A DNA stretch of 64,000 nt from a virus (IMGVR_UViG_3300032287_000839:45794-109793); one strand, 5' to 3'. Positions 6,478-64,000 are shown, counted from the first letter of the stretch. Translations and numbers: made by a program. The notes: generated from the letters alone by a model not told the origin.

Positions 6478-6494
6478 AACTACCAAATATTTTT

Positions 6495-35465: not shown

Positions 35466-38400
35466 TTATTTATATTTGTTTAACCAGCCACCACTTTTAA
35501 ATGCTTTGATTTCTCCTTTACCTCCTTTGAAATTATTAGGTATATCAAACTCATACCAACTGTTTCCCTTACCATCTGTTACTATTTTAGGTTCTTTCCC
35601 AAATAGTTTCTTTATAAGTTTAGGTTGTTCTGTATATTTTTTAAGAATGGTCTGAGCTTCTGGATCAAATACACTACCTTTTATTTTTCCATCTAATATT
35701 GATTGTATAAACTTTCTTTCACTTTCAGGTAAGTTATTAATTTTTTCTGCAAATGCAGCAGGGTCTTTTGCTAATGCTTCTCTATACATTGATACAAACT
35801 CTTCAGAATCAACATTTTTATAATTTTGTACCTTAGCTGCAGTTTCTGATGTTGGTACTCTTATTTTACTTACATCACCTCGTTTACCAGCATAGTCTAC
35901 AAGTTCTTGAAGAAATCTATCTTGATGTTTTTTATCTAACAATGACTTTTGTGTATAGTTCTCTACCTCTGCTTTAGAAAGTTTGTTTATAGCTTGTTGT
36001 TCTTCTATAAGTTTTGCATATCTATTAATCTGTTCATCTAATTTATGAAGATTTTCTTTTGTAGCAAGAGTGTTTGAAGCTTCATCTCTAGCTAACTTCT
36101 TCTCTGCTTTTAAACTTTCAAGAAGTTTATTACGCTCATTTACTATACTTTCTAAACGGTTTAAAGAAAACTCTGCATTTTCTAAACTACTAGGCATTAC
36201 TCTATGTGTTCCTTGAAAAGCATCAGATTGAATTTGTGTCACTGTAAGAATATCTGGTGTATCCGCATCTCTTAAAAAGTGAATATGACCAAGAGTTTCT
36301 TCAGGATTACTATGAGCATCAGACCCTCTACCAAACTTTTCTTTATTACTTAATAAAAGAGTTTGATTTTCTAAAGGAAGATTATTGTAATCTTTTATAT
36401 CTCTATCTAATATTTTTTTCAATTGTTCAACTCTTTCTTCCTCTCCTAACACTCCTTCTTCTGTACGAATAATTTCTTTAATTCTTTCTATCTCAGCACC
36501 AGCAGCTTCTCTAGTAGTATTTCCCAACATTCCTACTTTTTTATTAAATCCTAAGTTATCTATACCAAAGTTAGAACGCTGCATTGTAAAGTTTCTTTCT
36601 AAAGGAATAAGTTGATCCTGTACTGTTTTTCTAAAATCATTATAATCCATCTTCTTAGGAAGTTCATCTCCCAATGCCTTTTTTATAAGATCCACTTTAC
36701 TAGCACCACCTGATTCTTTTCCTATAATACCTAATGCTTGTTCTACATTTACAAGACCTGTTTTAGGTTCTACTATTTTACTAATAGGACCTCCTTCCAT
36801 TGTAGATGATAAATGTAATCCTGGAAGTTCTTGTTGTTGCCAAGATGGTTTTGGAGTATCATCTATTGATAAGTATGGTTCCATTCCTTCTGGTGGAGGA
36901 GGGGTGTATCCTGGATGTTGAATACCCCTCATCTCTCTATTGTGTTTTATTATTTCTGCTTTTGTTAGTTTTTTACTACTACTTATTATATTTCCACTTG
37001 CATCATATTGTAAAGTTTGACCAGTAACTGGATTATATAAATGTTTTGATGCAGACTCTTCTATTGGAGCTGCATTAATTATTTCACCCATGTCATTGAT
37101 AACAGGTGTTTCTTTAGAAATATTAGCAGCATTATTTAATTTCTTAAGATATTTTGCTCCTTTAGTAACTTCAGATGCAAATGGCAACACATCAAGAGTT
37201 GTTAACCCTGTGTTTAAAAGTGCATTTCCTATACTTCCAAAACTAGGATCATTAACAGCAGTTTTCCAATCTTCTGCTACACCAGGAATTCTATTAAGTC
37301 CTTCATATGCAAATCCAGCACTAAGAAGATTAGAACCTGTAAGTCCTGCCACTCCTGCCATAGGAGCATTAAGACCTGCTACTATTGATGGCATAGCTGT
37401 TGCACCTACACCACCTGCAAGAATCAATGGTGTTGTTTTAACGAATTGATTAGCAGCCACAGCACCTGCTCCTGGATTATATCCACTTGGAGTTAATGAA
37501 CCAAACGTTTGAGCAAGTGGGGAGTTTCTTTGAGCCTCAGCCATATATGCATCAGTTAACATTTGTTGATCTGCTGCTCTACTTGCAGGGGTACTTTTAT
37601 CTTTAGATACATAGCTTCTGTTTGCTTTTTCACGATTAGCAGCAGCTTGAAATGCTTCTTGTTTCTCTTTATCTTTTTGTTTTTTGATTTCTTCTTGTGT
37701 AACAACTTTAGAAGTGGGTTGATATGTTCCAGAACCAACACCTATTTCAATACCAGTCTGAGCTTTAGGAGTGTAATTATCTAACCATCCACCATTCTTC
37801 ATCATTGGAAACTCTGTAACCTTCTCACCATCAAACTTATAATCTTGATCAGGATACATCATTTTTGTATCACCTGTATCAGATACACCAAGTACAGGAT
37901 AGTCCACACCTTCCATGGTGATATCATTAGAGTTAATCTCTGTTATCTCACCTGGGTGTGCCCATTGTCCCATATCATCCTTTATCACAGAACCATTCTT
38001 ACTTATATTCTTAGGAGTGAAGTCTAATCCTTGTTGATAGAATCTCATCTCCTTACCGTTTTGAGCTTGAGTTAGAGGAGCTGTATTGTTAAGTTGAGCC
38101 ACCTCGTTGTTCATCTTGATAATATCCTCATCCTTGAACTTAAGTCTCATTCTCTGCATACCAGGCTGATTGTTAATCTTTGGATTCTTTAAAGCTTTCT
38201 GAAACATTTCAGGAGTTAACTCTTGTCCAAACTCAGTGGTTATTCCATTATCAAGTAGGAGCTGTCTCATTCCAGTTAAGTCTCCATAAGTTTCATTAGC
38301 TGCAGTTTTTGCTGAAGCTCTACTTCCTTGTGGTTTGTAATGTTCTTCTTGAATAGCTTTTTGATAAGCCTCATTTGGAGCAGTAACTCTACCACTTAAA

Positions 38401-39659
38401 GGTATGTTTATTTTCTCTAATTCACTTTTACTAAATTGTTCAAATGGTTGGAATAAGTCTCCTACAACATTAGCCGCTCTAGAAAGCAAGTTTTGTTTTC
38501 CATAACTGAGGGTACGGTTTGGAATTATTCCATGTGCAACTTCATGAGCTATTGATGGATTATCAACAAAATCACTAGCACCAAGATTAACACGATTTGT
38601 AATCATGTTGTAGTCTGTACCTCTATCTACAGTATTAGGATTAAGTTTAATACTCAATAAGTTATCAAGTCTTTGTTGTTGTACATCTTTAGCTAACTCT
38701 TGATCAGGTATACTTAAAGAAAGTCTTTTTGAATATAGAGGAGATTTCATATATCCTGCTATATTTTGTTTTATACCTTCAAAGTTTTTTGTATCAAATG
38801 GAACAAAGGAATTTGCTCTAACATATTGAAATGCTGGGTCAGGGTTATTAAAATCTAATGTTGCACGATCGTCTGCATTTGGATCTAGAACCTTACCATC
38901 CTGAGCACTAGCTTTAGTCTTCTTAGCATACTTACCATTACTAGGAGCAGCTCCAGCTGTACGTGCGTACGTGAATCCTACAGCACCTGGAATAGATCCA
39001 CCCATATCATGCTTTCTATACATGTTATCTTTATCTCTATATCCATCAGGAAGCATATTTTTATCAGATAGATATTTAATAATTTTATCTTTTTGATCTT
39101 TACTAATGAATGGAGTAGAGCCTATAGCAGCACCAATCATGTTATTGAACTGATCTTCAGCTCCTTCTTTAAATGTATCATACAAACTATATGGACGAGT
39201 TACTGCTCCTCTGTTAGGGTCAACTAACTCATGACCAAGACCTGCAGCACTAGCTCCTAAGAACCCAGCTATTTGAGATATCCCTGGAATATTGTATAGT
39301 TTATTTTGAATAGCTTCAGATACATATCTACCAGCCATAGGATGTCTAATATTGTCTACTTGATCTTCTCCTGGTTTTGTATATTTATCAGCAGTTATTT
39401 CAGCTTTTTGCATAGGATTACCTAACCAGTCTTCTACTTTATCTTGTATGTCCTTTTTCTTTTTCTTTCCACCATTCTGAAACTGTCCTCCCCATGCAGG
39501 AGAATAGTTTCTACCCTTGGTGTTATTACCCATACCTACAAAATCAGGACCTACAGATGCTTGCACATTGTTAGGATTAGGTTTTTTACCATAGTTATCC
39601 TTAGTCTTTTGTTTTAAGACCAAACCCCCTTGTTCGTATTTGTCTAACCACTTAGCCAT
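35466..39659 (-). CDS. large virion protein (1397 aa) with an HExxH zinc-metallopeptidase motif and GGWL[DN]xY motifs at both termini and mid-protein
   Basis: HEVAH at 38532..38546 (SIAHEVAHGI). N-terminus MAKWLDKYEQGG, mid-protein MMKNGGWLDNY, C-terminus FKSGGWLNKYK. Confidence 0.6.
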   Translation of the reverse strand: MAKWLDKYEQGGLVLKQKTKDNYGKKPNPNNVQASVGPDFVGMGNNTKGRNYSPAWGGQFQNGGKKKKKDIQDKVEDWLGNPMQKAEITADKYTKPGEDQVDNIRHPMAGRYVSEAIQNKLYNIPGISQIAGFLGASAAGLGHELVDPNRGAVTRPYSLYDTFKEGAEDQFNNMIGAAIGSTPFISKDQKDKIIKYLSDKNMLPDGYRDKDNMYRKHDMGGSIPGAVGFTYARTAGAAPSNGKYAKKTKASAQDGKVLDPNADDRATLDFNNPDPAFQYVRANSFVPFDTKNFEGIKQNIAGYMKSPLYSKRLSLSIPDQELAKDVQQQRLDNLLSIKLNPNTVDRGTDYNMITNRVNLGASDFVDNPSIAHEVAHGIIPNRTLSYGKQNLLSRAANVVGDLFQPFEQFSKSELEKINIPLSGRVTAPNEAYQKAIQEEHYKPQGSRASAKTAANETYGDLTGMRQLLLDNGITTEFGQELTPEMFQKALKNPKINNQPGMQRMRLKFKDEDIIKMNNEVAQLNNTAPLTQAQNGKEMRFYQQGLDFTPKNISKNGSVIKDDMGQWAHPGEITEINSNDITMEGVDYPVLGVSDTGDTKMMYPDQDYKFDGEKVTEFPMMKNGGWLDNYTPKAQTGIEIGVGSGTYQPTSKVVTQEEIKKQKDKEKQEAFQAAANREKANRSYVSKDKSTPASRAADQQMLTDAYMAEAQRNSPLAQTFGSLTPSGYNPGAGAVAANQFVKTTPLILAGGVGATAMPSIVAGLNAPMAGVAGLTGSNLLSAGFAYEGLNRIPGVAEDWKTAVNDPSFGSIGNALLNTGLTTLDVLPFASEVTKGAKYLKKLNNAANISKETPVINDMGEIINAAPIEESASKHLYNPVTGQTLQYDASGNIISSSKKLTKAEIIKHNREMRGIQHPGYTPPPPEGMEPYLSIDDTPKPSWQQQELPGLHLSSTMEGGPISKIVEPKTGLVNVEQALGIIGKESGGASKVDLIKKALGDELPKKMDYNDFRKTVQDQLIPLERNFTMQRSNFGIDNLGFNKKVGMLGNTTREAAGAEIERIKEIIRTEEGVLGEEERVEQLKKILDRDIKDYNNLPLENQTLLLSNKEKFGRGSDAHSNPEETLGHIHFLRDADTPDILTVTQIQSDAFQGTHRVMPSSLENAEFSLNRLESIVNERNKLLESLKAEKKLARDEASNTLATKENLHKLDEQINRYAKLIEEQQAINKLSKAEVENYTQKSLLDKKHQDRFLQELVDYAGKRGDVSKIRVPTSETAAKVQNYKNVDSEEFVSMYREALAKDPAAFAEKINNLPESERKFIQSILDGKIKGSVFDPEAQTILKKYTEQPKLIKKLFGKEPKIVTDGKGNSWYEFDIPNNFKGGKGEIKAFKSGGWLNKYK

Positions 39660-40534: not shown

Positions 40535-43500
40535 TTATGAAACGCACGAAGGATCAAAACAAGAAGTTACATTAACTAATACATCTAAATCAACACCTGA
40601 AGGCAATGTTCCACTACCCACTTGTGAAACAATTGAATAACAATCAGCAGGACCAGCTATAACTACACCACTTAGACTGCTATAAATACTATAACCATTT
40701 GCAGTTTCTGAAGTGGTACATGATTGTAATTCATAATAATAATAGTCTGTTATAACAGTAGTAGTTGTTGTGGTTGTGCTAGTAGATGTTGATGTTGTAG
40801 TAGATGTTGATGTAGAAGTAGTGGTAGTTGTATTACATTCAGTTGTTATACTCTTAGTTTTTAAAGTTCCCACTGAATCTTTTACTACAATCCAGAACGT
40901 ATTATCTTCTGTACCAGCACCATAAGAAATTGAAAGAGCTGAAACCCAACTTGTATTAGCTAATGCTGCTGCTTCTAAATAGAAGAAAGTAGTTCCAAAT
41001 TCATAAGGACCCACTCCACCAATTATATCACTACCAAAAATAGTTATATTACCATCAGTACAAACGTAACTTATAGTGAAATCAAGTGGAGCTGCAGTTG
41101 TTGTTGTAGTAGTGGTAGTTGGTTCACAATCAGGACAAGTACCAGATATTAAACAAGTTGTATTACAGTTATATTCTCCCAATAATCCACCTATTGGACT
41201 GTTAACCGTAATCACAGAACCAGCTTGAATACAATGGTTGAATTTACTTCCAGGTAATATGTTTGGAGATATAGTACTTCCATCACAATTCGTTACAGTA
41301 TAATTAACAGTTACCACATCTTCGTTCACTACAGTCCAACATTCACAAGGTAAAGTTGTAGTAGTGGTGGTAGTTGTAGTAATGTTTTCTGCTGTACCTT
41401 CTGTAGCACAAGGATCTACATACACCACTGTTCCATCATAATCACATGGTCCAGGAACATAAGCTGCTGTACCACTTAAGTTACAATTTGGTGCTGCTGT
41501 TGTTGATGTACTAGTAGTAGTTGTAGTGGTAATCTCAAGTAAAGCCACTGCTTCTAAGTCACAACCTTCATTTAATCCAGAATAGAAGAAGTTATTCTCA
41601 GCTATGTAGAAGTTAGGAATGTAGCTATGGAAGCTCACCCAACTTTTAGTATTTACATTAAAAGATAAAGTCCAAGATTTATTACAGAAATATTTAATAT
41701 CTGAAAGATCTACATATGTTATTGTTACTGTTTCTAATGGTTCTGTTCCTATGATGTTCTCTATATAATACTTATTAGTAGAGGCTTCATATTTAATAAC
41801 ATCTATATATTCAGGTTGAGGAATGTAATCTAACTTACTGATAATCACTCTATCATACTTACTATCATACACACCATGTAAACCAATACCATTGAAATGG
41901 TTATCTGTATCAGCATTAGGATAGTAGTTAAGAATCTCAAACGCTAAGTGGTCTGTCATAAATCTGTTTACACCAGATCCAAATGAAGATATATCAATTG
42001 CTTGATTACCAGTAACTAAAAAGATTTGTCCTCTTTTAGCATCTGCTGTTATTTGCCCTTGAGGAATCTTTAATAAGAATTTATTCTGACTTCCTGCATA
42101 TCCAAGATCTGTTTCAGCAAAATCTATTGGAGGAGAAGATCTAAATAATGAAGGATTACCTAAGTAAGCTGCTTGAGGATTACTTGTATTAATTGTTAAT
42201 AACGTATTGTATAACAATGACTTATTCTCAAATCTAGCTAATACAGCTTTATTCTGAATACCATCCAATGAAGTTAAGTTACCAAAGTTTTGAGGAAAAT
42301 CAAAGAATGCTACAGGAGTATAAGTTAACCAACTGTTAACTCTTGTACTAGGATTAGATGATTGTTGCTCAGAATAGATAGCTCTAAATGGATAGTTTGT
42401 ATAACATAAATCAGGTTTCCAATCTACAGGTAAATGAGAGATCACATTCTCTGTATTCTGTTTAGAATAAGTTACATTATAAGTGTACGTATTATCAAGA
42501 GCAATAGGAACAAAGGTTTGTTGTAACCAGTTGTCAGGAATACCTGAGCTCACGTGTGGGTAGAAGTCACCTTCTAAGTTATTGAATGCTTGACGTAAGT
42601 CTACATTAATAGAACTTTCTACATAGAAATAAGGAATACCATAAGCAAATAAGTACATCTTACCGCTATAAGAATAAGTGGTAGGACTTGGTGTTGTGCT
42701 TCCTGAAGGATTTATAGTACTTGTACTAGTGGTAGTTGTATTTGTTACATACGTATTATCATTAGGACAATCAAAATAGTGAGCCTTCTCAGATATAATG
42801 TTCTTTAAAGTTCTAGCACTACTTCCTGTACCCACATTAAAGTTACTTAATATAGATCTAGAAGAATACCAATATTGAGGATATGCTACGTTTCCTATCT
42901 CATCATAGAATATATCACTATCATCATTAGCACCAACTCTATTATCAATAAAGAAAGGAAGCTTTGTTTTAAATGAGAATCTACCAATGAATGTATCTCC
43001 ACCAAATGCAACATCTGGTTGAGATGGTGATAAGTTATCAAAATTTATTTGATATCCTGTATCAATAGTTTGATAAGAATACATTTGTCCCCATTGGTTA
43101 GGGAATATGTTTTTAATAGATCCATAATAGGAAACTACACTAATATCTTCTTGTGTCTCTGGGGCCCCACAGTTATCTCTTCCAGATAATGTAAATCTTG
43201 AATTATCAATAACTTGACTTTGTCCAGCAACAACTAATGATGGAGTTTCTTCAGCAAAAGGTAATGAAATTGCATCAACTGATGTTCTTAAATAAACAGA
43301 AGATTCTCTTTGAAAATTGTTAACATTATATACATCTCCTACTGATTGTACACCAGGAATAAGATATTGAGATATATCAAGTTCTCTTTGCTTAACTCCT
43401 ACAATACCGTATATACCAACTTGTTCATTTAAGATGTCTGCATTATAGTCATACTGAGCTACGGAGTTAAATGAGTATGCGAAGTTTTGTCTACTTATAC

Positions 43501-46027
43501 CATTAATGTAGATTTGTAAATAAGCTTGGTAACAAGTAAACATTGCTGTTGCATCAAGTGTACCTGTAATGTTAGCAATATTATAACTTGAGTTTAATGC
43601 ATCTACTTGAGCTTGTTTACTAATAAGTTTGTATAATGCATGGTTTTTAACTTGTACAAAATGAGCCCTACCAGCACCATAAAATGCACTTTCTAACTTA
43701 AGAACATTACCCAATATAGGTTGTCCAAAAGAAGTTTCTGGTGAATTAAACACCATTCTGGATTTAGAACCCTCACCTAGTCCAATTAAATTATCTGGAT
43801 AAGCTGCCACATTTTCATTATCAGTAGTTGCTAGTATTGAATATAATTGAGAACCTGAAACACGTTGAGGTATTGATATAGAATTTATTGTAACAGGAGA
43901 TCCAATAATTACAGTTTCAGTTTTAAGTTCAGATAGGTCATTTAAATAACTAAAGGTTGTAAAAGTTTGTGCTCCAGCATATACAGTTAATGTATAAGAA
44001 TTAAGTGTTACATTTGTAAATGTAGCCGCACCACTAATTACTATAGGAACAGTCAATGAGTATACTGGAGTAGTCATATCTATAGTCACTGATTCATTAG
44101 TATAGCAGTCTGTAATCTGCATTGTACCAGGAATAGTTACAGTAACTCGATATGTTTGACATTGAGAATTATATGCATTATTTCTTTGAAGTAAGAATGG
44201 ATCTTCCTTAATATCATTATATGGATAGTTAGGATAGAAATAGTAAGTAGGGTTTACACTATAAGGATTATCTCTTGTATATTTACCTACGTTTCTAATA
44301 ATACCCTTAGCAACAATAGATTGATTTGTACCTCTATTTCCTCTAACAATCTTATATGCAGCTATTTCAGATTTTTGCTCAGCTGTTAAATCAGAAGTGT
44401 TAATTAATGAAATAATCTGCTGTGTATTAACTTTAACACCAATAGGATAAATAGCATTAGCTTTTTGCATTATTGGAAGAATACTATTTCCAACATATGT
44501 GATTTCTGGATTCTCAAAAATAGGACTTACAAGAACATCTGGAAATTTATGATGTCTAATCTTTTGACCAGCTAAATCTCCCCACACATTTGTATTACAG
44601 GGATACTCTTCTAAAGATTCCCAATATGCAAACTGACCATACTTGTATGGTGTAGCAGTTCCAATATTAGGTCCTAAAGCATCTCCAATTACTGATGCTG
44701 TATTATATATCTTCCAATAAGGAGCTGATGTTCCTTCTCCAATATAGTCAGCATTATCAGCTTTATTTATTATTACTAAATCATTTAAATTAGCAATCCT
44801 ACCAGGAATATGGAAACCATCTGTTTGTTTACCATTTTTAAGGATGAATACAATTTCAAATGCATACACCTCATCACGCAAGTACCCACGCAAGTTAGTA
44901 GCATTTACTGAATCTGCATAGGTTTCTCCAGAAGGAATTTTGTATGTTTCCCAGAAAAGGTCAATTTGATTAGCAATCTTCTGATAGTTAGTTCTATCTA
45001 TAGAAGTTAGGTTATCCCATACTAATATATCTTGTACAGTGGTTAAATCTTCAGCAACCTCATAATAAGGATTCTTAAAAAGAATATCTGCAGTTGATAA
45101 AGATATCTCTGTTTTATATTGTCCTGAGTAAGTTATTTGATTTGTTGTTCCATCAATAAAATATGTACCCACTAAATTTACAGTGGAAGCACCATTGATA
45201 GTTTTAATTACAGCTATGTTATAATATTCAAAATAGCCTGTTATATCTATATTGCTAATATCTATAACAATAGATTTACCTACAGCATAATCAAAATTAG
45301 CTGTGGTAAGTTGAGTATTAGCAATAGGAGTAGGGTTAGTAACAGAATAGTAAGATGTATAAGCATCACCCACTGCACTAGAATATTGAATAGCAAATTG
45401 GTATGTACCAGCTACTAAATCTCCTACATTAATAACACTATTGATTGTTAATTCTGGTATATTAAAATTAGGCTGTACCTTTATCTTATTACAATCAAGT
45501 AAAGGAAAAGTTTCTGCATCACAAATAACGTCATTTGTAAATAGAGTAAGATAGGGAGGATTCTCTAAATCTATGAATCTTCTAGGATTAAATCCATCAG
45601 TCCAATACACCTCAGTTGTACAATTACTAATCTTGTGTACAGCCTTATGAATAGGATGTTCTATTTTAAAGTTAAGGCAAAAGCCATTGATCCACGTATG
45701 GTATACGCAATCATTATTGTCCATATATCCTATTTCAGAACCTCCTGTCAAAGGATCAGTTAAAAAGAATATGTGTTTATTTTTTTCTTGAATGAAGTGT
45801 TCGCCAATAAGTTGGTACCCATCAGGAAAGTTTAGACAAAGTTTGTTCCCTTGCTCATTCTGATAGTTAACAGAACTAGCATCAAAGTTTTCTAAATTGG
45901 CATTTAAGGCATAAGTTAATTTACCTTTATCAATCTGATTAACAGTTAAGTCCATGTTTAAACCAACTCTACCAAGATTGAATTCTTGCCTTACATTTCC
46001 CTGTTGTCCTTGTTGTTCTTCAGCCAT
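40535..46027 (-). CDS. giant tail fiber or host-recognition protein (1830 aa) with several poly-Thr/Ser linkers and Cys-rich C-terminal modules
   Basis: Uninterrupted ORF. Linkers TTTTTSTSTTAAP, TTTTTTTTLPCEC, EPTTTTTTTTAAP and TTTTTSTSTSTTTSTSTSTTTTTTT separate the modules. Confidence 0.6.
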   Translation of the reverse strand: MAEEQQGQQGNVRQEFNLGRVGLNMDLTVNQIDKGKLTYALNANLENFDASSVNYQNEQGNKLCLNFPDGYQLIGEHFIQEKNKHIFFLTDPLTGGSEIGYMDNNDCVYHTWINGFCLNFKIEHPIHKAVHKISNCTTEVYWTDGFNPRRFIDLENPPYLTLFTNDVICDAETFPLLDCNKIKVQPNFNIPELTINSVINVGDLVAGTYQFAIQYSSAVGDAYTSYYSVTNPTPIANTQLTTANFDYAVGKSIVIDISNIDITGYFEYYNIAVIKTINGASTVNLVGTYFIDGTTNQITYSGQYKTEISLSTADILFKNPYYEVAEDLTTVQDILVWDNLTSIDRTNYQKIANQIDLFWETYKIPSGETYADSVNATNLRGYLRDEVYAFEIVFILKNGKQTDGFHIPGRIANLNDLVIINKADNADYIGEGTSAPYWKIYNTASVIGDALGPNIGTATPYKYGQFAYWESLEEYPCNTNVWGDLAGQKIRHHKFPDVLVSPIFENPEITYVGNSILPIMQKANAIYPIGVKVNTQQIISLINTSDLTAEQKSEIAAYKIVRGNRGTNQSIVAKGIIRNVGKYTRDNPYSVNPTYYFYPNYPYNDIKEDPFLLQRNNAYNSQCQTYRVTVTIPGTMQITDCYTNESVTIDMTTPVYSLTVPIVISGAATFTNVTLNSYTLTVYAGAQTFTTFSYLNDLSELKTETVIIGSPVTINSISIPQRVSGSQLYSILATTDNENVAAYPDNLIGLGEGSKSRMVFNSPETSFGQPILGNVLKLESAFYGAGRAHFVQVKNHALYKLISKQAQVDALNSSYNIANITGTLDATAMFTCYQAYLQIYINGISRQNFAYSFNSVAQYDYNADILNEQVGIYGIVGVKQRELDISQYLIPGVQSVGDVYNVNNFQRESSVYLRTSVDAISLPFAEETPSLVVAGQSQVIDNSRFTLSGRDNCGAPETQEDISVVSYYGSIKNIFPNQWGQMYSYQTIDTGYQINFDNLSPSQPDVAFGGDTFIGRFSFKTKLPFFIDNRVGANDDSDIFYDEIGNVAYPQYWYSSRSILSNFNVGTGSSARTLKNIISEKAHYFDCPNDNTYVTNTTTTSTSTINPSGSTTPSPTTYSYSGKMYLFAYGIPYFYVESSINVDLRQAFNNLEGDFYPHVSSGIPDNWLQQTFVPIALDNTYTYNVTYSKQNTENVISHLPVDWKPDLCYTNYPFRAIYSEQQSSNPSTRVNSWLTYTPVAFFDFPQNFGNLTSLDGIQNKAVLARFENKSLLYNTLLTINTSNPQAAYLGNPSLFRSSPPIDFAETDLGYAGSQNKFLLKIPQGQITADAKRGQIFLVTGNQAIDISSFGSGVNRFMTDHLAFEILNYYPNADTDNHFNGIGLHGVYDSKYDRVIISKLDYIPQPEYIDVIKYEASTNKYYIENIIGTEPLETVTITYVDLSDIKYFCNKSWTLSFNVNTKSWVSFHSYIPNFYIAENNFFYSGLNEGCDLEAVALLEITTTTTTSTSTTAAPNCNLSGTAAYVPGPCDYDGTVVYVDPCATEGTAENITTTTTTTTTLPCECWTVVNEDVVTVNYTVTNCDGSTISPNILPGSKFNHCIQAGSVITVNSPIGGLLGEYNCNTTCLISGTCPDCEPTTTTTTTTAAPLDFTISYVCTDGNITIFGSDIIGGVGPYEFGTTFFYLEAAALANTSWVSALSISYGAGTEDNTFWIVVKDSVGTLKTKSITTECNTTTTTSTSTSTTTSTSTSTTTTTTTVITDYYYYELQSCTTSETANGYSIYSSLSGVVIAGPADCYSIVSQVGSGTLPSGVDLDVLVNVTSCFDPSCVS

Positions 46028-55622: not shown

Positions 55623-55961
55623 TTATGTAGTTTTTGTTTGGTTTATAAAAAGTTGGTTTCTTCTTTGTATTGTTATTATTCTATGACAATTTGCACATCT
55701 TACTTCACATTTATTCATTTCATTTGTTAATCTTTTTAAAGACCATGCACAATTTACAGCATGTGAAATATTTCCTTCTTTATTATCATTTATATGATCA
55801 AATTCTAGAACTCTAATATCTGTGTTTCCACAATCTACACAAGGATGATTATTTAAATAAGTTGTTACAAACTCTCTATTTCTTTTTTTACAAACCTCCC
55901 TAGAACTTTTTCTAGTGAGCCTTATAGTTTCTTCCCTATTCAAACTTTTATGTTTGCCCAT
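55623..55961 (-). CDS. free-standing HNH homing endonuclease
   Basis: CVDCGNTDIRVLEFDHINDNKEGN...CANCH (C..C...H..N...C..CH, the HNH core). The probable start is MGKHKS at 55961; the longer ORF to 56027 reads into a structured GC-rich island. Confidence 0.75.
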   Translation of the reverse strand: MGKHKSLNREETIRLTRKSSREVCKKRNREFVTTYLNNHPCVDCGNTDIRVLEFDHINDNKEGNISHAVNCAWSLKRLTNEMNKCEVRCANCHRIITIQRRNQLFINQTKTT

Positions 55962-56040
55962 ATGTAGTTTTAATATTTGCAGATGGTTCCCATCGAAGGG
56001 CATGCTGCTGGGAATTCCCCAACACATCCATCTGTAGTTT

Positions 56041-56140: not shown

Positions 56141-57694
56141 TTAGAATTGAGGAATTTCTTCAATCAATACTGTACGAGATAAATCCTCGATGAATACATC
56201 ACAACGATCTTTCATCCAGATTTCATATCCAGGGAATTTGTTCGCAGAACTCATACCTTGAGACTTAGCAAAACCTAAGTGGTGACGAGTACCATCGATA
56301 TAACCCCAAGTCATAGAAGGTGCACCCTTCATACGTACTTCACGGATATTGTTAACCATAGAACCATCAGACATTGGAGATACGTCAAACACCATAAATA
56401 CTGGAGTTGATTTCTTGTTTTGTCCAAATTCTAAGTTAGTTTGAGGTAAGTCTAATTCTTTCAAGTGAATTAATTCAACACGACCAGTCTCACGAGTAAC
56501 CATTGCATCGAATGCAAAGTTGTAAGTGATGTGTTGACCTTCTCCTTGTAAATAACGATTACCAGAATCAGCCATGAAAGTTAAACCTGAGTTTAATGCA
56601 TCATTCTTTAAAGCTTGTTGGAACACGTCAAAACCAGCTTCATTAGTGTACATTTTAACTCTACGATCCTTAACATCCACACGACGGTAGAATAAGTCAC
56701 CAAACACTGAACGAATCAAGTTTGCAGTGAACTCACCACGGTTGTATTGAACTAAGTTACCGTTATTTCTCATTCTGTGGTATACACCAGCAGAAGTTCT
56801 CTTTAATTCTTGCTTAGAACCATTAGTCTTCACGGTACCAGGCTTAGCCCAGATCATACGCTTAACTTTTAATTCTAACATTGATTTACGCATCCAGAAC
56901 TCAATAAATGGTTCCCACTTAACATCATTACGAGTTAAAGGTAATTGGTTACGTCTTTGAGGAGCATATACCAAGATATCTAAAGGTTTGCCAGAAGCAT
57001 CTCTCATCATCTTATCATCAGCCCACTCAGTGATTTTGTGCTCATAACCATATGCAGAACCTAAAGATTCAAACATTGTGATTTGCTCACCTAAACGAGG
57101 AAGACCTAATAAGTCTTGATCAAATTCACCGATAGCAGCATCAACCAATTCTAATTCAATACCTATTCTTAAGAAAGTAGGGCTTACGAAATCTACAACT
57201 GGATTGTCTGTAACTAAAGTGAAAGTATACAAATAACCAACGTTCCATGGTTGAGGATCTTTCACAACATAGAAACGAGGACCATATTGACGTGTACCAA
57301 CAGAAACGATAGCGTTCTTAGAGAACTCGTTTGTGTCAATAATCAATTGGAACTCTTGACCATCAATACCTGGCTTAGATAACTCTAAGGTTGTAGTAGG
57401 GATGTCAATGATTTTAGGGAATTTGTACGGAACTTGTACTTGCCACTTCCAAGCATCACTATTGTTATCGATATAGTAAGGAGTGCTCTTGTTAATCATG
57501 TCCAAGAAGTCATTACTGTAAAGAGAGCTCTGAGTATACAAGCTAATGATTTTCTTATCATAGTCTGCTGGCTCTGTAGAGTGAAAGCTTTCCAAGTGGT
57601 TCGAATCTGTTAATTTACCTACAGCACGCTTGTCCATAGAAGCTACTCTTGCGTAAGTAAAGCCAGTTAAACCTGGAATTGTTTGAATTGCCAT
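56141..57694 (-). CDS. candidate major capsid protein (517 aa)
   Basis: Call rests on position (after the scaffold-like gene, before the terminator) and size. No motif-level proof. Confidence 0.45.
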   Translation of the reverse strand: MAIQTIPGLTGFTYARVASMDKRAVGKLTDSNHLESFHSTEPADYDKKIISLYTQSSLYSNDFLDMINKSTPYYIDNNSDAWKWQVQVPYKFPKIIDIPTTTLELSKPGIDGQEFQLIIDTNEFSKNAIVSVGTRQYGPRFYVVKDPQPWNVGYLYTFTLVTDNPVVDFVSPTFLRIGIELELVDAAIGEFDQDLLGLPRLGEQITMFESLGSAYGYEHKITEWADDKMMRDASGKPLDILVYAPQRRNQLPLTRNDVKWEPFIEFWMRKSMLELKVKRMIWAKPGTVKTNGSKQELKRTSAGVYHRMRNNGNLVQYNRGEFTANLIRSVFGDLFYRRVDVKDRRVKMYTNEAGFDVFQQALKNDALNSGLTFMADSGNRYLQGEGQHITYNFAFDAMVTRETGRVELIHLKELDLPQTNLEFGQNKKSTPVFMVFDVSPMSDGSMVNNIREVRMKGAPSMTWGYIDGTRHHLGFAKSQGMSSANKFPGYEIWMKDRCDVFIEDLSRTVLIEEIPQF

Positions 57695-57731: not shown

Positions 57732-59009
57732 TTATACAAACCAAGAAGTAGGTCTCGCTTGTGTTTTTCCTGATTTGACTGAACTCTTCTGAGCTTGTCT
57801 AGCTACCTCACCAAATAACTCGTTGGACTTTTTGGTAAGACCTGTCTTTTGAATGGTAGATAATGTAGGATCTTTTTCTAATATCTTTAGTAAAAGTCCC
57901 ACCTTAACTTTCTTCTCATGATTCTCAGGTCTCTTAAGGTCTAAGATAGTACGATCAAACTCTGTAAGCATTTCGCCTGTAGGGGTTTTGTATCTATCTG
58001 TAACCAGGAAATCTTGTAGTTCACCAGCAAGTTTTGGGTTCAAAGGAATACCATCAAACTCTTTAGCCTTCAATTTATCTTGAAGAACGTTATTAATATT
58101 AGCAACATATTGTTGTTTATATTGAGCTTGAGCTTGTAATTGTTGTTCCTTTTGTTGTTCTAATTGTTGAAGCTTAGCAGCTTCTTTCTTAACTAACACT
58201 TTGTGATGTTTAGTAGCAACCGATTCTAAATCACCGTAGTTTTTAAGTCTTTCAATCTCTGTTGTAACATCTTCAGGTTCAAATCCTTGATCAAGTAATG
58301 CTTGTTTAAGTATTGATACTTGATTAGTTTCATCTGCAAGATCCATCTCAGAGAAAGACTGTATTTTATTGAATGTGCCAAAATAGTCTTCAGGATGTAC
58401 TCCCTTTACAAATATGGCATCAAATGCTTGTTGATATTCTTCTCCAAATTGACCAATGAAGTTGTTTACCACTTCAATAGCTCCTTTCTTCTTCTCAGCA
58501 TTAAAACGCTCAAGGAATTGTTCAGGAGTGCTAATTGGTTCTTCTTCATCATCTTCATCTTGTGAAAATACACCTAGTTTAAATAAGTCTTTGGATAAAG
58601 AAGCAAATGTAGACTCAGGGGCATCCTCCTCATCATCACCATCTTCTTCCGTGGTTTCCTCGGTAGGTGCTTCAGCTTTTGGAGTTTTAGTTTTTGTAGG
58701 AGCAGGAGCTTCTTCTTCCTCTTCTTCAGCATCATCTCCTCCTAAAAGGAAATCCTGAAGGGATTTAGTAGACTCTTCTTTTTCTACACTATCAGTTTCT
58801 GTTTTAGCAGCTGCTGTTTTTTTAACAGGAGCAGAAGCAGGTTCAGTAGTTTTATCAGGAGCATTAATATCCTGAATATCATCTGGGTTAGTTGTAGAAG
58901 TTTCAGGACCCATTAAATCGTTTAATAGTTCTTGATTTCCCATTCCCATATCCATAGTATCTTGAATACTAAAGTTACCAAATGATTGGTTATCTAAATT
59001 CTCAGCCAT
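57732..59009 (-). CDS. candidate scaffolding protein, highly acidic with a C-terminal Q-rich coiled coil
   Basis: EEEEEEAPAPTKT...EEDGDDEEDAPE, then QQLEQQKEQQLQAQAQ. Located between the portal and capsid candidates. Confidence 0.45.
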   Translation of the reverse strand: MAENLDNQSFGNFSIQDTMDMGMGNQELLNDLMGPETSTTNPDDIQDINAPDKTTEPASAPVKKTAAAKTETDSVEKEESTKSLQDFLLGGDDAEEEEEEAPAPTKTKTPKAEAPTEETTEEDGDDEEDAPESTFASLSKDLFKLGVFSQDEDDEEEPISTPEQFLERFNAEKKKGAIEVVNNFIGQFGEEYQQAFDAIFVKGVHPEDYFGTFNKIQSFSEMDLADETNQVSILKQALLDQGFEPEDVTTEIERLKNYGDLESVATKHHKVLVKKEAAKLQQLEQQKEQQLQAQAQYKQQYVANINNVLQDKLKAKEFDGIPLNPKLAGELQDFLVTDRYKTPTGEMLTEFDRTILDLKRPENHEKKVKVGLLLKILEKDPTLSTIQKTGLTKKSNELFGEVARQAQKSSVKSGKTQARPTSWFV

Positions 59010-59129
59010 ATGTAGTTGTATTTATTTGGTTTTCAAGTTGTAAAAGTATAGTAAGTTAAATTAATAGCAAAGAGATAGAACACTATATGCCTTGATATTC
59101 AATATAATATAGCATTAATATTTTTTACT

Positions 59130-59660
59130 CTAATCTAATTTGTTAAGGAATGAATCATTTATGAACCTAAAACTTCTAATTGGAGCTAAGTCAGTCAGTG
59201 TAACTTGTTGAACTTCAACACCCCACTTTCTAGCTTCAACTCTAACTTTCTTAGTAAGAGTGTTATCTAGTTCACTATCTGTACACTCATCCATAGTCAT
59301 AGACATAATGACATTTTTTATAATACTTTGAGACATATCTGACAGGGCATCCTGAGCATCATACACCTCTAATAAGAATGTCTTCACGTCTGATATCTTG
59401 TATTTAATAACCCCCTTGACAACTATGTTCTGTTTATCAAGAGTGTATAAAGATTGAGCATTTAGACTTAATGTAGTTATTACTACATGTTGGTCTATCA
59501 CCTCATCAAAAAGAGGAATTTTTAAATGCATTCCAGGTTTGAGCACTGCTGAGAATCTACCAAACCTTAATAGTACAGCTTCTTCATAATGTCTGATAAT
59601 AATAACTGGGGTTAGTTGCAACCACCAGTTAGTTATTATCTCAATCAGTTTATCAAACAT
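59130..59660 (-). CDS. SPFH/band-7 (stomatin/prohibitin/HflK-like) domain protein lacking the C-terminal coiled coil
   Basis: Residues LLRFGRFSAVLKPGMHLKIPLFDEV...TMDECTDSELDNTLTKKVRVEARKWGVEVQQVTLTDLAP align by eye with bacterial QmcA/HflK SPFH cores (ERFGRY..L.PGL....PF.D...MELDE.L..R......L......WG..V....I.D..PP). Confidence 0.7.
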   Translation of the reverse strand: MFDKLIEIITNWWLQLTPVIIIRHYEEAVLLRFGRFSAVLKPGMHLKIPLFDEVIDQHVVITTLSLNAQSLYTLDKQNIVVKGVIKYKISDVKTFLLEVYDAQDALSDMSQSIIKNVIMSMTMDECTDSELDNTLTKKVRVEARKWGVEVQQVTLTDLAPIRSFRFINDSFLNKLD

Positions 59661-59662
59661 AT

Positions 59663-62242
59663 TTATTTGTTTTTGTTAGCTCTGCCCTTTGCATTCTCTT
59701 TAGCAACAGCAAGATCGTTCGCTTGGTTTTCTCTTTCCACCTGTAGCTTCTCTCTTTCTAATGCCATCTTTTCAGCTTCCTTTCTATTCTTATTTTGAAT
59801 ATCAGTCATTTTAAGTTGATAGTCTTTAGCAGCACTATCCTGATCATATTGTAACTTGCTGATTTCCAATGCATCTGGAACATCATTCATGTCTATATCT
59901 GGAAGACCTCCTTTAGATTCAGCCATGATTGTAGCAATCTCAACCTTATTAATTCTATCTAATTCTTTTTGGTAATCATCATTAGCAATTTTCTCTTGAT
60001 GCATTTGTTGAGCTTGTTGTAATGCAGCTTCAGCTTGTTGTTGCTGTTGTTCCAATTGTTGCTGTTGTTGTTGTATCTTTTGATCCTCCATCTGCTGTTG
60101 TCTATCTTTAAGTGTTTTGAACACCTTCTTCATTTGACGTACAGAGTTAGTGCTGTAAAGCTCAATGATATCATGTAAGCTTCCACCATTCTGAAGAACA
60201 GCTTGAGATAATCCTCTAATTTCGTTAAACATTTTCTGATCTTCTGGTCTGTTAGTCAAGAACACTTTAAGATCACGGAACTTAAGATCAGAACCATTAA
60301 CAGAAACAAATGCAGATTCTCCCTCAGATGTAATATAAGAAATAGTAGATTGTGGTTTAGAACTTTCTACATATAAAGCTGCATCAATAATAGATTGGTA
60401 TAATTGACCAAGAACATATTCATGAGCAGCAAATAAAGGCTCAGTTTGAGAGTAGGATTGTTGTATAGCAGTGTTTGTACCTGTAGCAGATTCACTGGCT
60501 GAAATAGATCCTAAACGCTGTTTAGACATACCTACTAACTCCCAACACTCTTGTTTCAATTGCATAGCTAGATTATATCTAGATTGAATCTCTTGCGTAC
60601 GTGTAAGGTCAATATCTCTAAACTGGTTAAATGATGATGGGCTCTTTAAGTTCTCAGGAGAGTCATCAATAAACATCACCCCTCTGTTACGTGCTTCCAT
60701 TTCCCATATATCAAGAGCATCTTGTGCATCTCCATCTTTAGGAATAGGAATGTGTCTAATAGATGTTAAATACACCTTACCCACCTCTTTCTCAAGAAGC
60801 TTATAAAGCTGATTCATACATACATTATATAACACCTGGAAAGGCTTCATTAAATCTACTAAAGACTTAGCCTCTGTATTCTTCACCTCATGAACTAATC
60901 CTATAATAGGACAATAGTTCAATAATTTAAACGGCTTGATATTATAAATATCTGGACCAATCTTGTATCCTTGATACCATTGGTTAATCCATCCCCACTC
61001 TAATGATTGCTGTGTAGGAACAGTTCCTGATTTATAGTTTTCATCAACAAGCATAGATTGCTCATTGCCCATCTCATCTAAATAGATTAATTTGCCAATC
61101 TTCTTCTTAGAGATCCAATAGGTTCTAACCACAACATATTTGTAACCAAAACTACTAACGTTTGACGTTAGCCCTAAGAAATCCTGAAGACCATCGTTAT
61201 TCTCCTTCATTTCAGATTCAATGATCATTCTAGTTTGTAGAACAAGAGGATCAAATGTATCATATTGAACTGAGTCTTGACCTGGAACAGCATTAGGATT
61301 GCCTAAGTTAGACTCACGCACATTGATCAAACCATAGTCTTGTAATGAACTACGTAAGTGATCTATTTCTTCTTTCTCTAAATCAGGGAATGTTTCAATA
61401 ATTTCAGATAATTCCATCACCTGTACAATACCAGCAGCATAAGCTCCTTGTGCTCTACCTGTAGTGTCTGAAATATATTTTCTATCTGGAGTGGTTAAAA
61501 AGAATGTATTTTTTGGGTTAGCCACCTCAACATTAAATCCAAGCTTAGAGTTATCCTCATATATATGATAGAACTCTCTAGCTGAAATCAATAAGTCTCT
61601 GAAGGCATCTTCTGATTTCTCCTTAAGAACAAACTCAGCTTTCTGTGATGTAAGAACGTGGTTAGCCCACTTCTCAGCTACAGATGTATAGCTATCAAGC
61701 TCATCTCTCACTTCCTCAAGAGTCATTTGTTGTAATTCCTCAGGCTCCATTTCTTGTCCATGCATAGCTGCATTTTCTTGAATCTTCTGTTTAGCTTGAG
61801 ATATTACATAGTCTTGAAGAAGTTGAGTTTTAAACTCAAGCTCTGCAGATTGACTATCATCATCAAAAGCCTTCACACGGAAAGCATCTGGTCTTTTAGA
61901 AATCTCTCCCACTAATTCGTTAAGAGGAGTGGTAATAATAGAATACATTTTTACATATGCTGGAAGCTGTAAGTCTGCTGTAAGTACATCAGTAAAGCTT
62001 CTCACCTGTGGTTCTTGGTAAAAGTCTTCCATGCGTAGGATTCCCTTAACCAAGTCATAGTTTTTAACAAATGTATCTCTGTTCTTCACATACTCAGCAT
62101 AAGCCTTGTTTGCAAAGTAGTCCATTGTGTTTTTAATCCAACTCTCATCTTGCTTCTCCTTCTCAGTCTTGAACTGATCAGGGAAGATGTTTAAATATGC
62201 ATACCTTATGGTAGCGTCTTTTGTATACCTTATAATTGCCAT
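59663..62242 (-). CDS. candidate portal protein (859 aa) with a C-terminal Q-rich coiled coil
   Basis: Sits immediately downstream of the large terminase. Size is typical of crAss-like or large podovirus portals. Confidence 0.5.
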   Translation of the reverse strand: MAIIRYTKDATIRYAYLNIFPDQFKTEKEKQDESWIKNTMDYFANKAYAEYVKNRDTFVKNYDLVKGILRMEDFYQEPQVRSFTDVLTADLQLPAYVKMYSIITTPLNELVGEISKRPDAFRVKAFDDDSQSAELEFKTQLLQDYVISQAKQKIQENAAMHGQEMEPEELQQMTLEEVRDELDSYTSVAEKWANHVLTSQKAEFVLKEKSEDAFRDLLISAREFYHIYEDNSKLGFNVEVANPKNTFFLTTPDRKYISDTTGRAQGAYAAGIVQVMELSEIIETFPDLEKEEIDHLRSSLQDYGLINVRESNLGNPNAVPGQDSVQYDTFDPLVLQTRMIIESEMKENNDGLQDFLGLTSNVSSFGYKYVVVRTYWISKKKIGKLIYLDEMGNEQSMLVDENYKSGTVPTQQSLEWGWINQWYQGYKIGPDIYNIKPFKLLNYCPIIGLVHEVKNTEAKSLVDLMKPFQVLYNVCMNQLYKLLEKEVGKVYLTSIRHIPIPKDGDAQDALDIWEMEARNRGVMFIDDSPENLKSPSSFNQFRDIDLTRTQEIQSRYNLAMQLKQECWELVGMSKQRLGSISASESATGTNTAIQQSYSQTEPLFAAHEYVLGQLYQSIIDAALYVESSKPQSTISYITSEGESAFVSVNGSDLKFRDLKVFLTNRPEDQKMFNEIRGLSQAVLQNGGSLHDIIELYSTNSVRQMKKVFKTLKDRQQQMEDQKIQQQQQQLEQQQQQAEAALQQAQQMHQEKIANDDYQKELDRINKVEIATIMAESKGGLPDIDMNDVPDALEISKLQYDQDSAAKDYQLKMTDIQNKNRKEAEKMALEREKLQVERENQANDLAVAKENAKGRANKNK

Positions 62243-64000
62243 TATGTAAACAATTTATTTCTTTTATATCTATTAGGGGATTTGCCAAACATCCCTGCTC
62301 TTGAATCTGTAAATAATATATTCCCTTGTTTCTTAGAGAACATTGACTTCACTCTCTCATCTCCTGATCCTCCCACCTTACCAATGATTGGGTCCATTTT
62401 CACTGCTTGAGCTATTGCAAGCTCAGCTGCAATGATACGGTCAAAGTTTCCTTGATCATTATATTGTATAATTTCCTCAAGGAGAACAGGATCAAATATC
62501 TTATTCACTCCTAGTGTTTCCCTTATCACCACACCATTTTCATCCTTCTCAATATATATTGCTTCTTCCATATAATGCTTTAAGCAGGTGTGAAGATAGT
62601 CAATTATTTTCTGACTTGAACGATGAATTCCATAATCTCTTCTTACAGTGGTTGCTGGAACTATTTCTTTAAGCCAATCTGGTTGTCTTTCTAGGTAGTG
62701 AGCATCTCCTTTACTCTTCATATATTCAATAAAGGATATATCATCATTTTCACAGAGCGTTCGTGCATTGTAGTATTTAATAAGGAATCTGGCTTGTTCA
62801 TTCCAGTGGTCCTTACTATCTGGTCTTGCACAATACGAAGCTACGAACATATCTTGATATTTCTCACCATTAATATCATGCATTCTTTTATAAATATACA
62901 CAGCTCCTAATGAGCTTGAATATGCTGATTGTCCTTGTCTATAAGGATCGACTCCTGCTACATATAATCCATATGCAGGATTTTCTACAGGGAACTCATA
63001 TATAACAATAGGTGCATCTTTGTTATCACTGTTCTTTAATGGAAAGTTTGTAATAGGAAGCTTATCTGTAAATTCATGAGCTATATTACTATTTTCATCC
63101 ATATATAATATGACAGGGGTTCCTGTTCTCTCCACCTGTTGTAGTCTAAACTTCTGTCTTTTAGCTGATTCAATATCAAAGATGTTAGTATCCTCATTCA
63201 AGAATATGTCATCCACTTCCATAGGATAGTACATCTTCTCCTTCAAATAAGCCACACGATCACCAGCTTTCTTAAGTCTTTCTAAGTTCTTATTAGTTAT
63301 CTCAAGAGCTTTTTCTTCATTACTTACAAGCATTTTAATCTGGTGTAAGTCTGATGTAGTAGGTTCATTTAGATATTCTCCAAGACTAGATTCCTCCTTT
63401 GCCTCCATTCTATATTTAGCAGGAATGAACAACCCATGTATACGTTGGTCATCTTTAGCATTATTATATGTAAGGAAATTGAAGTTGTCTACATCAAACA
63501 TTAAGCTCTTTGCATCCATGAATTTCTTCATGTCACCACCAGTACCAGTAAGAATTGGAGAGCATCCCCATCCATAGGGAGTTGTGAAACCTGGAATAGC
63601 AGCTTGTAAGCCTCTAAGGAAATTACCTTTACCAATCTCATCTATAATTAATTTACGTGGTTTTGTACCTGCAATTGCCTCTTCATTATTACCTTCATCA
63701 AGGTTACGTATTAGAATGGAAGAGAATGGGATACGTTCACCAGACTTGGTCTTTATACCTAGAGTCACTTGGTTCTTCCAGTTGTCCTCAATTCTCTGCC
63801 ATCTCCAATACTCAGGAATGAAATTCAATCCTTTGTCAATCTTATCAGTGATCAGTTTAATATCTGGGGCATTTAAGCCTGCAATAATATTCTGACTGTT
63901 CTCATCAAAGGTTGCACCCCATGCAATATAGGATGCTTCAAGAACAGACTTGGCAAAACGTCTAATACCTAGAATGACTAAGCCCCTCTTTTCTTGTTGA
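62242..64000 (-). CDS. terL: terminase large subunit, 5' end beyond the window
   Basis: Walker B LIIDEIGK. Nuclease motif VAGVDPYRQG. The frame stays open upstream of the reported 'M' (which is a TTG) and reads ...KRGLVILGIRRFAKS..., Walker-A-like, to the window edge. Confidence 0.8.
   Translation of the reverse strand, partial: QQEKRGLVILGIRRFAKSVLEASYIAWGATFDENSQNIIAGLNAPDIKLITDKIDKGLNFIPEYWRWQRIEDNWKNQVTLGIKTKSGERIPFSSILIRNLDEGNNEEAIAGTKPRKLIIDEIGKGNFLRGLQAAIPGFTTPYGWGCSPILTGTGGDMKKFMDAKSLMFDVDNFNFLTYNNAKDDQRIHGLFIPAKYRMEAKEESSLGEYLNEPTTSDLHQIKMLVSNEEKALEITNKNLERLKKAGDRVAYLKEKMYYPMEVDDIFLNEDTNIFDIESAKRQKFRLQQVERTGTPVILYMDENSNIAHEFTDKLPITNFPLKNSDNKDAPIVIYEFPVENPAYGLYVAGVDPYRQGQSAYSSSLGAVYIYKRMHDINGEKYQDMFVASYCARPDSKDHWNEQARFLIKYYNARTLCENDDISFIEYMKSKGDAHYLERQPDWLKEIVPATTVRRDYGIHRSSQKIIDYLHTCLKHYMEEAIYIEKDENGVVIRETLGVNKIFDPVLLEEIIQYNDQGNFDRIIAAELAIAQAVKMDPIIGKVGGSGDERVKSMFSKKQGNILFTDSRAGMFGKSPNRYKRNKLFT

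Follow-up and report, generated by a model that had tools for sequence, protein, structure and literature searches.

A minimal SPFH protein gene at the portal-scaffold junction of an abundant environmental crAss-like phage lineage

Background

SPFH proteins are universal membrane organisers, the cage structures of which have been solved only recently. Phage copies have been annotated for twenty years without a known function. The present analysis concerns one such copy, a protein of 176 amino acids (aa) encoded by an open reading frame (ORF; positions 59130-59660, minus strand) in 64,000 nucleotides (nt) of viral DNA (IMGVR_UViG_3300032287_000839:45794-109793), this whole stretch being referred to as the window. 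The window represents the structural half of a crAss-like phage (~34% G+C), in which the minus-strand genes follow each other in the order large terminase (TerL), portal, SPFH, a 425-aa acidic protein in the scaffold position, and major capsid protein (MCP), with the genes for tail ring proteins 1 and 2 further on.

Several described systems resemble this SPFH protein. HflK/HflC of E. coli (PDB 7vhp, 7wi3, and 9cz2), a cage that modulates FtsH, shares with it the SPFH1/2 fold and the motifs RxG, PGxHxKxP, Q..T.D, and WG. However, the window's protein lacks the transmembrane (TM) anchor, the coiled-coil wall, and the cap, and it is encoded by a single gene instead of a K/C pair; lacking the anchor, it would therefore not take up an HflK/C-like periplasmic position. 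The best structural and sequence matches are stomatin and QmcA (9z7u, 9oh9, and 8z5g), with which the N-terminal helix and the SPFH core superpose over ~165 columns. These proteins, in contrast, are 250-305 aa long, with a membrane hairpin or TM segment and an extended helical C-terminal region, and assemble into cages of 16 or 26 subunits. QmcA also has an NfeD partner (YbbJ), whereas no NfeD protein was found among the 33 window proteins scanned, the neighbours of the SPFH gene being the portal and scaffold-position genes. Two further phage proteins offer functional analogies only, without a sequence or fold relationship to the SPFH protein, namely lambda CIII, a small FtsH inhibitor using an amphipathic helix at the membrane, and T4 gp40, a small membrane chaperone helping the gp20 portal to start prohead assembly at the inner membrane.

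Phage SPFH domains are also present in the PHROG_200 proteins of Vi01-like phages and the Schitoviridae phage GIB1 and in Band 7 ORFs of T4-like phages, the latter noted in 2006 in the phages 44RR, Aeh1, and RB43 (PMC1524935). The PHROG_200 proteins are annotated as lipoproteins, whereas the SPFH protein of the window has neither a signal peptide nor a lipobox and matches only positions 108-258 of 379 of phrog_200 (9e-10); judged from its sequence, it is not a lipoprotein of this type. From a Vi01-like phage, an SPFH protein of the longer lipoprotein type was represented by three peptides in virion mass spectrometry (PMC10892097). In a 2026 preprint, a cd03408 SPFH domain of a Segatella gut crassvirus figures only as a BACPHLIP feature, with speculation (10.64898/2026.08.21.746148). 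Phage SPFH genes are still described as unexplained (PMC13239085), and the literature search brought up neither a functional study on a phage SPFH protein nor a link to defence. For isolated stomatin SPFH domains, dimers, trimers, and fibril-like assemblies have been reported (PMC9663324 and PMC9157467). A phage protein of equally short build is A0A6J7WFI0, a 173-aa member of the same short family that is named HflK protein by automatic annotation only; it superposes over its full length (TM-score 0.86/0.87) at 26% identity.

Identity and architecture of the SPFH protein

The ORF at 59130-59660 is, with near certainty, an SPFH protein gene. An earlier note on this DNA had read a clear SPFH/Band_7 core from the sequence and had proposed a Pfam search as a check. 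The search returned PF01145 (Band_7) with an E-value of 5e-26 and 92.2 bits against a gathering cut-off of 23.6 (hmmscan), the match spanning residues 21-160 of 176 and profile positions 2-147. Sequence matches in the PDB comprised QmcA (5e-11), stomatin, and HflK/HflC (phmmer). In addition, an AlphaFold2 model built on 53 family sequences (mean pLDDT 87.6) gave human stomatin (E-value 4e-14), HflK, HflC, QmcA, prohibitin, erlin, and flotillin as top Foldseek matches, as well as the MVP shoulder, all at probability 1.00. Together with NCBIfam matches, these results bear out the core described in the note, and the coordinates and the place between portal and scaffold-position gene given there proved correct by the ORF listing and Pfam matches. 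The start codon is backed by the N-terminus MF(D/E)(K/R)L(I/L), found family-wide. The gene and the parts of its product are as follows.

59130-59660, minus strand: minimal SPFH (Band_7) protein gene, 176 aa, with ATG start and stop codon at 59130-59132 (ORF listing)
59613-59657, minus strand: N-terminal amphipathic helix FDKLIEIITNWWLQL, codons 2-16, coinciding with AlphaFold2 helix 2-16, not a TM segment
59181-59606, minus strand: SPFH1/SPFH2 alpha/beta core, codons 19-160 (Pfam 21-160, AlphaFold2 pLDDT ~87-95, Foldseek)
59133-59180, minus strand: short C-terminal tail of low confidence, codons 161-176 (pLDDT 69 and then 54 in the last two 10-residue blocks)

The protein belongs to the SPFH superfamily by sequence and fold, yet it fails the tested defining features of both the cage-forming SPFH scaffolds and the HflK/HflC equivalogs. 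No long coiled coil (CC1/CC2) or C-terminal cap is present, as only 16 residues follow the last SPFH strand, in agreement with the truncation relative to cellular SPFH proteins that had been noted before. Alignments to solved chains of 256-419 aa end at SPFH2, and the tail of residues 161-176 stands where canonical SPFH proteins carry their coiled coil. The NCBIfam equivalog cut-offs were missed for HflK (TIGR01933, 74.8 versus 159.4) and for HflC (TIGR01932, 53.2 versus 134.4). Neither a signal peptide nor a lipobox cysteine was found on reading the N-terminus MFDKLIEIITNWW, and no TM helix was found in the protein, the maximum Kyte-Doolittle mean over 19 residues being 1.23 (family mean 1.24), compared with 3.36 for the N-terminus of HflC. 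The hydrophobic moment of helix 2-16, in turn, is 0.56, against 0.24 +/- 0.12 for shuffled sequences (p=0.005), and averages 0.60 over the short SPFH family, described below. This helix is a candidate in-plane membrane anchor or docking helix. At the other end, the tail motif (I/V)RSxR(L/F) is particular to the short family, with S163 and R165 invariant or near-invariant, whereas most other near-invariant residues are general SPFH core motifs.

A short SPFH-only family in phages and bacteria

An exhaustive HMMER search over 1.84 billion cluster representatives (50% identity) retrieved 4454 clusters at E<=1e-3 and 790 at E<=1e-10. The short (~170-185 aa) SPFH-only proteins constitute a distinct, mostly phage-borne family instead of a one-off truncation, because nearly all of the best 150 representatives count 168-190 aa and are aligned end to end, over approximately residues 1-170 of the query. 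The N-terminal helix MF(D/E)(K/R)L and the tail RSxR(L/F) are conserved across the family, which has no PHROG of its own, phrog_200 being the PHROG matched by the query. Automatic names of its members in JGI and UniProt are 'regulator of protease activity HflC' and 'HflK'. In BFVD, A0A6J7WFI0, from an uncultured Caudovirales phage, was the one full-length structural match, the other viral SPFH proteins being 258-800 aa long. Among GenBank phages, a handful of weak matches to the family was obtained. Searches of IMG/VR with the distant member P0173 and with the MCPs of contigs L160 and L162 found nothing. PADLOC models gave no match to the SPFH protein, their library covering host defence systems and not phage exclusion genes.

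The genomic contexts of the family are diverse. The order portal, SPFH, scaffold-position gene, and MCP recurs in distant crAss-like contigs (L162, L114, L117, and L160, the latter with an extra 89-aa ORF). The SPFH gene lies upstream of TerL in the crAss-like contigs L110, L151, and L163, and adjoins TerL also in L174; it directly follows TerL in a 45-kb spring-water podovirus (MW202733). In the crAss-like contigs L086 and L095, it comes after the gene for tail ring protein 1, with that for a giant virion protein on its other side, and in the T7-like contig L167 it opens the late region. Larger phage contigs carry it among small ORFs near genes for RNR/QueE, primase, glycosyltransferase, RNA ligase, and 5'-nucleotidase. 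No partner gene was found to be conserved across the phage lineages. The earlier note had called the position between portal and scaffold unusual for this family, which holds only in part. Other members are indeed located near primase, RNR/QueE, RNA ligase, or tail ring protein 1 genes and in bacterial chromosomes, but adjacency to TerL or portal recurs in crAss-like and podovirus contigs (L160, L162, L110, L151, L163, and L174). As a separate observation, the TerL homologue of L163 (9456-12890; 1144 aa) carries Hom_end_hint and LAGLIDADG_3 matches, marking an intein in a distant crAss-like terminase.

A tight chromosomal clade is found in Gammaproteobacteria, including the complete Thiotrichales chromosome CP070838. 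There, the SPFH gene is always followed by a gene for a signal-peptide protein of ~280 aa (L164, 8001-9370; L165 and L166, 8001-9388; L168-L171). This partner has a signal-like N-terminus and a C-terminus ending in AFG(Y/F)(S/T), two copies compared being 37% identical, and it gave no Pfam match above threshold. The chromosomal pair may represent an envelope two-gene module derived from phage. A neighbour-joining tree, without support values, mixes the contexts and nests the bacterial clade inside the phage diversity.

An accessory-gene slot between portal and scaffold-position gene

Although the SPFH gene is intact and constrained where it is present, it is missing from a considerable part of the close relatives. 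A second locus search was performed with the MCP, because the earlier loci had been found through the SPFH gene itself. Among the 107 MCP-ascertained loci that show the portal-scaffold junction, the SPFH gene is full-length in 80, the junction is empty in 16, other inserts occupy it in eight, and SPFH fragments are present in three. Hence, 27 of the 107 are without an intact SPFH gene and 24 without any copy, with MCPs that are 88-99% identical to the query MCP of the scan. In the 16 empty loci, the portal gene runs straight to the spacer and the scaffold-position gene. Three of the inserts (L220, L224, and L230) consist of an acidic ORF of 79-83 aa and an 89-aa ORF with the motif HEHFH, for which no Pfam match was found. 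The fragments are those of L214, which retains the last 68 codons only, L259, and L270. In a neighbour-joining tree of portal and MCP, the absences are scattered, and nine changes are required by Fitch parsimony, which implies a minimum of nine gains or losses. The junction behaves like an accessory-gene slot, of which the SPFH gene is the commonest occupant. The features that delimit it in the window are the following.

59663-62242, minus strand: portal gene, 859 aa (phrog_6547, 3.3e-104; PF16510 P22_portal, 1.2e-14)
59661-59662, minus strand: 2-nt spacer from the portal stop to the SPFH ATG (sequence reading)
59010-59129, minus strand: AT-rich 120-nt spacer after the SPFH gene, with conserved blocks in an alignment of 57 distinct spacers
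57732-59009, minus strand: gene in the scaffold position, immediately preceding the MCP gene and encoding an acidic, Q-rich protein of 425 aa (phrog_16294, 1.5e-6)
56141-57694, minus strand: crAss-type MCP gene (PF23898 Crass_capsid, 1.6e-26; phrog_11589, 2.9e-32)

It is very unlikely that capsid assembly obligatorily requires the SPFH protein, because relatives lacking the gene have MCPs so close to the query. The portal of the window matches 133 GenBank records, mostly Crassvirales, at 24-28% identity, and none of these 133 phages carries an SPFH homologue; no SPFH gene was found between portal and MCP in Lbo-JY46 or cr10_1, the closest portal relatives. The earlier suggestion that the protein could act in capsid assembly is therefore not supported, given the 27 of 107 relatives without an intact copy, the approximately nine independent changes, and the absence from all 133 portal-sharing phages. 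The SPFH protein is very probably a dispensable accessory and not a head component.

Where present, the gene is well preserved. The lineage of the window is very abundant, with more than 600 SPFH protein clusters at 86-96% identity, nearly all of 176 aa, and with at least 599 MCP matches in IMG/VR, on contigs of up to ~115 kb. The median dN/dS of the SPFH gene is 0.08, indicating strong purifying selection. In 69 loci, the SPFH ATG stands 2 nt behind the portal stop, and in 32 loci the two overlap by 1 nt; together these make up 101 of the 111 loci in which both genes were found and nearly every locus of this order. By this spacing, the SPFH gene appears transcriptionally tied to TerL and portal. 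Median identities are 83.5% for SPFH, 83.6% for the portal, 71.6% for the scaffold-position gene, and 96.7% for the MCP, and pairwise SPFH distances follow those of the head genes (Mantel rho 0.52-0.61, p=0.002), with values close to those among the head genes themselves. An apparent decoupling of the gene as a cassette, based on the identity to the window (rho 0.03-0.08 versus flanking genes), was rejected as a single-reference artefact, as the full pairwise matrices correlate. By these comparisons, the SPFH gene is real, constrained, and co-inherited with the head genes where it is present.

The junction (59010-59662) is also a hot spot in other respects. An Endonuclease_7 homing gene (PF02945, 8e-26) lies between portal and SPFH in some relatives, and extra ORFs of 68 aa or 99 aa occur at the same place in others. 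Alternative states were seen in L207, L226, L250, L254, L220, L224, and L230, and also in L214, L106, L100, L116, and L117.

Possible roles of the SPFH protein

The preferred reading, put at somewhat below an even chance, sees in the SPFH protein an accessory factor of conditional use that acts close to the membrane, possibly by mimicking or poisoning SPFH/protease assemblies of the host, and not a head component. Of its parts, membrane-proximal action is judged reasonably probable, and interference with host SPFH/protease assemblies specifically is considered rather unlikely. The earlier note had suggested a tuning of host proteolysis, which the protein may exert, yet it has neither the TM anchor nor the periplasmic location that the topology of HflK/C implies, nor the coiled coils from which the HflK/C cage around FtsH is built. 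The gene would be a functional late gene, the last of the TerL-portal-SPFH string, maintained by strong purifying selection in its carriers and lost or replaced time and again. Its product would stay in the cytoplasm, because it has no signal peptide or TM segment, and would be docked by its amphipathic helix on the inner leaflet of the host membrane. Self-association of the SPFH core, together with the conserved RSxRL tail, would drive the next step. The protein may then form small membrane patches or, alternatively, intercalate into the cytoplasm-facing SPFH assemblies of the host as a wall-less, cage-incompetent subunit. Either option would alter gated membrane clients late in infection, such as FtsH-type proteases, channels, and membrane-repair or lysis-related factors.

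Several points weigh against this reading. Membrane binding is deduced only from the amphipathic helix, which might just as well serve to dock onto another protein, and the proposed host partner is a general class (SPFH/FtsH) and not a particular protein. A head-related role would likewise predict the close spacing to the portal stop and the repeated occurrence beside TerL or portal in podovirus-type lineages. In addition, the loci retrieved by MCP come from the best-80 lists of two queries and do not form a random sample, the neighbour-joining trees have no support values, and each contig lacking SPFH was viewed over 13.5 kb, so that a copy may be located elsewhere.

Less probable than the preferred reading, but the foremost of the alternatives, is a self-contained membrane effector, acting in superinfection exclusion, membrane stabilisation until lysis, or lysis timing without engaging any host SPFH/protease assembly. 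It would account for the architecture and the accessory-slot behaviour in the same way and fits the absence of a conserved phage partner gene and the pairing of the bacterial clade with a signal-peptide, envelope-type protein; moreover, exclusion-type genes are frequent in the variable slots of phage genomes. However, the protein shows no TM segment or pore-like feature, nor a PADLOC match (though that library is one of host defence systems), and computationally this role is indistinguishable from the preferred one. A step further down in likelihood is a head-assembly helper, made in step with the portal and serving as membrane tether or chaperone for portal/procapsid nucleation, like T4 gp40. 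The start codon 2 nt after, or overlapping by 1 nt, the portal stop in 101 of 111 loci speaks for it, as do the co-inheritance with the head genes at a portal-like evolutionary rate, the portal-SPFH-(scaffold)-MCP order in the distant contigs L160 and L162, and the adjacency to TerL in L110, L151, L163, and L174. What tells against such a helper is that approximately a quarter of the close relatives do without an intact copy, through ~9 independent changes and with MCPs 88-99% identical to the query, that no SPFH copy occurs in the 133 portal-sharing GenBank phages (Lbo-JY46 and cr10_1 included), and that other members reside in bacterial chromosomes or in regions devoted to replication and nucleotide metabolism. 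Carriage in the virion, or ejection from it along with the DNA so as to work at the next host's membrane, is quite improbable. Such a delivery would suit a gene inside the structural block and the copy between tail ring protein 1 and the giant virion protein in L086 and L095, and the Vi01-like SPFH protein was indeed seen in virions (three peptides; PMC10892097), but this count is very low and comes from another SPFH subfamily, close relatives can do without the gene, and many members are found in non-structural regions.

Two explanations that take the resemblance to cellular proteins at face value fare worse still. A genuine HflK/HflC-type regulator, forming or joining a periplasm-facing cage that encloses FtsH, would match the best NCBIfam hits (HflK, 7e-21; HflC, 1.9e-14) and the automatic names 'regulator of protease activity HflC' and 'HflK', and the biology of lambda CII/CIII illustrates that phages care about FtsH. 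Nevertheless, the scores fall far under the equivalog cut-offs (74.8 versus 159.4 and 53.2 versus 134.4), no TM helix or signal peptide would bring the protein to the periplasm, and no CC1/CC2 or cap is available for a cage, which leaves this explanation a slim chance, below that of a virion protein. The idea of a decaying, functionless remnant of a captured cellular SPFH gene could appeal to the truncation relative to cellular SPFH proteins and to the fragments in L214, L259, and L270. It is scarcely credible in view of the dN/dS of 0.08, the practically constant length of 176 aa across hundreds of variants, and the existence of a family of ~170-185 aa whose members, full-length and conserved at both termini, extend over hundreds of 50%-identity clusters.

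A more far-reaching and improbable version of the preferred reading would hold that the short SPFH-only proteins are 'cage-less' subunits invented by phages to dock on the inner membrane and to reprogram or poison host SPFH assemblies and, via these, FtsH-type proteases or other membrane clients that the assemblies gate. They would then embody a widespread new strategy of host takeover or counter-defence, present as the major allele of a hypervariable slot in one of the most abundant crAss-like lineages of the environment. In a bolder variant, the short proteins would build, in some hosts, a membrane platform where the portal starts procapsid assembly.

Whichever role applies, the domain assignment itself is routine, and the useful additions are the minimal architecture, the breadth of the family, and the polymorphism of the slot, the minimal form being found in an abundant environmental crAss-like lineage and in hundreds of other phage lineages. 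The protein offers a small and tractable means to ask what an isolated SPFH core does at a membrane, and it suits the question whether phages target host SPFH/protease complexes. The portal-scaffold junction is marked as an accessory-gene slot worth mining. Should the protein prove to be an ordinary membrane moron, the finding would matter only locally.

Other features of the window

The crAss-like affiliation of the window is apparent from the Crass_capsid MCP, the phrog_6547 portal, the phrog_6681 TerL, and matches to CrAss_Ring_1 and CrAss_Ring_2. Besides the genes listed above, two features flank or follow the portal-SPFH pair.

62242-64000, minus strand: large terminase gene (phrog_6681, 5e-76), running past the end of the window
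59041-59071, minus strand: promoter-like motif TTTG-N19-TActTTTA of Bacteroidota type, 32 nt before the next ATG

A split or intron-containing TerL gene had been considered, the listed ORF counting 528 aa versus 680 aa in relatives. It was rejected, as a tblastn search with the 680-aa TerL of L001 aligned residues 96-680 in one uninterrupted frame up to base 64000.

The promoter-like motif was judged against the Bacteroides promoter consensus, which is TTTG/TAnnTTTG-like. A regular-expression scan for TTTG-N18-21-TAnnTTT[GA] found five occurrences on the minus strand, three of which lie within 150 nt upstream of gene starts, zones that make up 8% of the window; the further copies upstream of gene starts are at 9446-9477 and 6456-6487 (both minus strand). 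The motif at 59041-59071 resembles a promoter from which the scaffold-position and capsid genes might be transcribed. Together with the A-rich start regions, free of Shine-Dalgarno sequences, it hints at a Bacteroidota host. A sigma-70 scan of the region gave fewer sites than shuffled sequences and nothing useful at the portal-scaffold junction. For the 425-aa protein, phrog_16294, of unknown function, was the only family match, and weak homology exists with the genes at the same position in Lbo-JY46 (3e-5) and cr10_1 (4e-12); its position, composition, and this homology suggest a scaffold role.

Downstream of the MCP gene, an HNH endonuclease gene (55623-56027, minus strand; phrog_2255, 3e-22) precedes a 322-aa gene. 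It is missing in the close relative L001, and L104 has a different, HNH-like ORF of 166 aa there, so that it is probably a homing endonuclease insertion. Very large ORFs occupy 13000-46027 (minus strand), coding for 1642 aa (13000-17928), 3808 aa (17928-29354), 1397 aa (35466-39659), and 1830 aa (40535-46027). Other matches in the window comprise collagen-repeat, cohesin, GH19, Peptidase_S74, and several glycosyltransferase domains.

A near-identity DNA search with the head block found nothing among GenBank phages. At the protein level, the nearest GenBank relative of portal and TerL is the Leptolyngbya phage Lbo-JY46 (L004; PP438436.1; E-value 1e-72 by tblastn). This 125-kb cyanophage, the head-block genes of which are all annotated as hypothetical, shows the order TerL, portal, 407-aa gene, and MCP, with a run of tRNA genes upstream.

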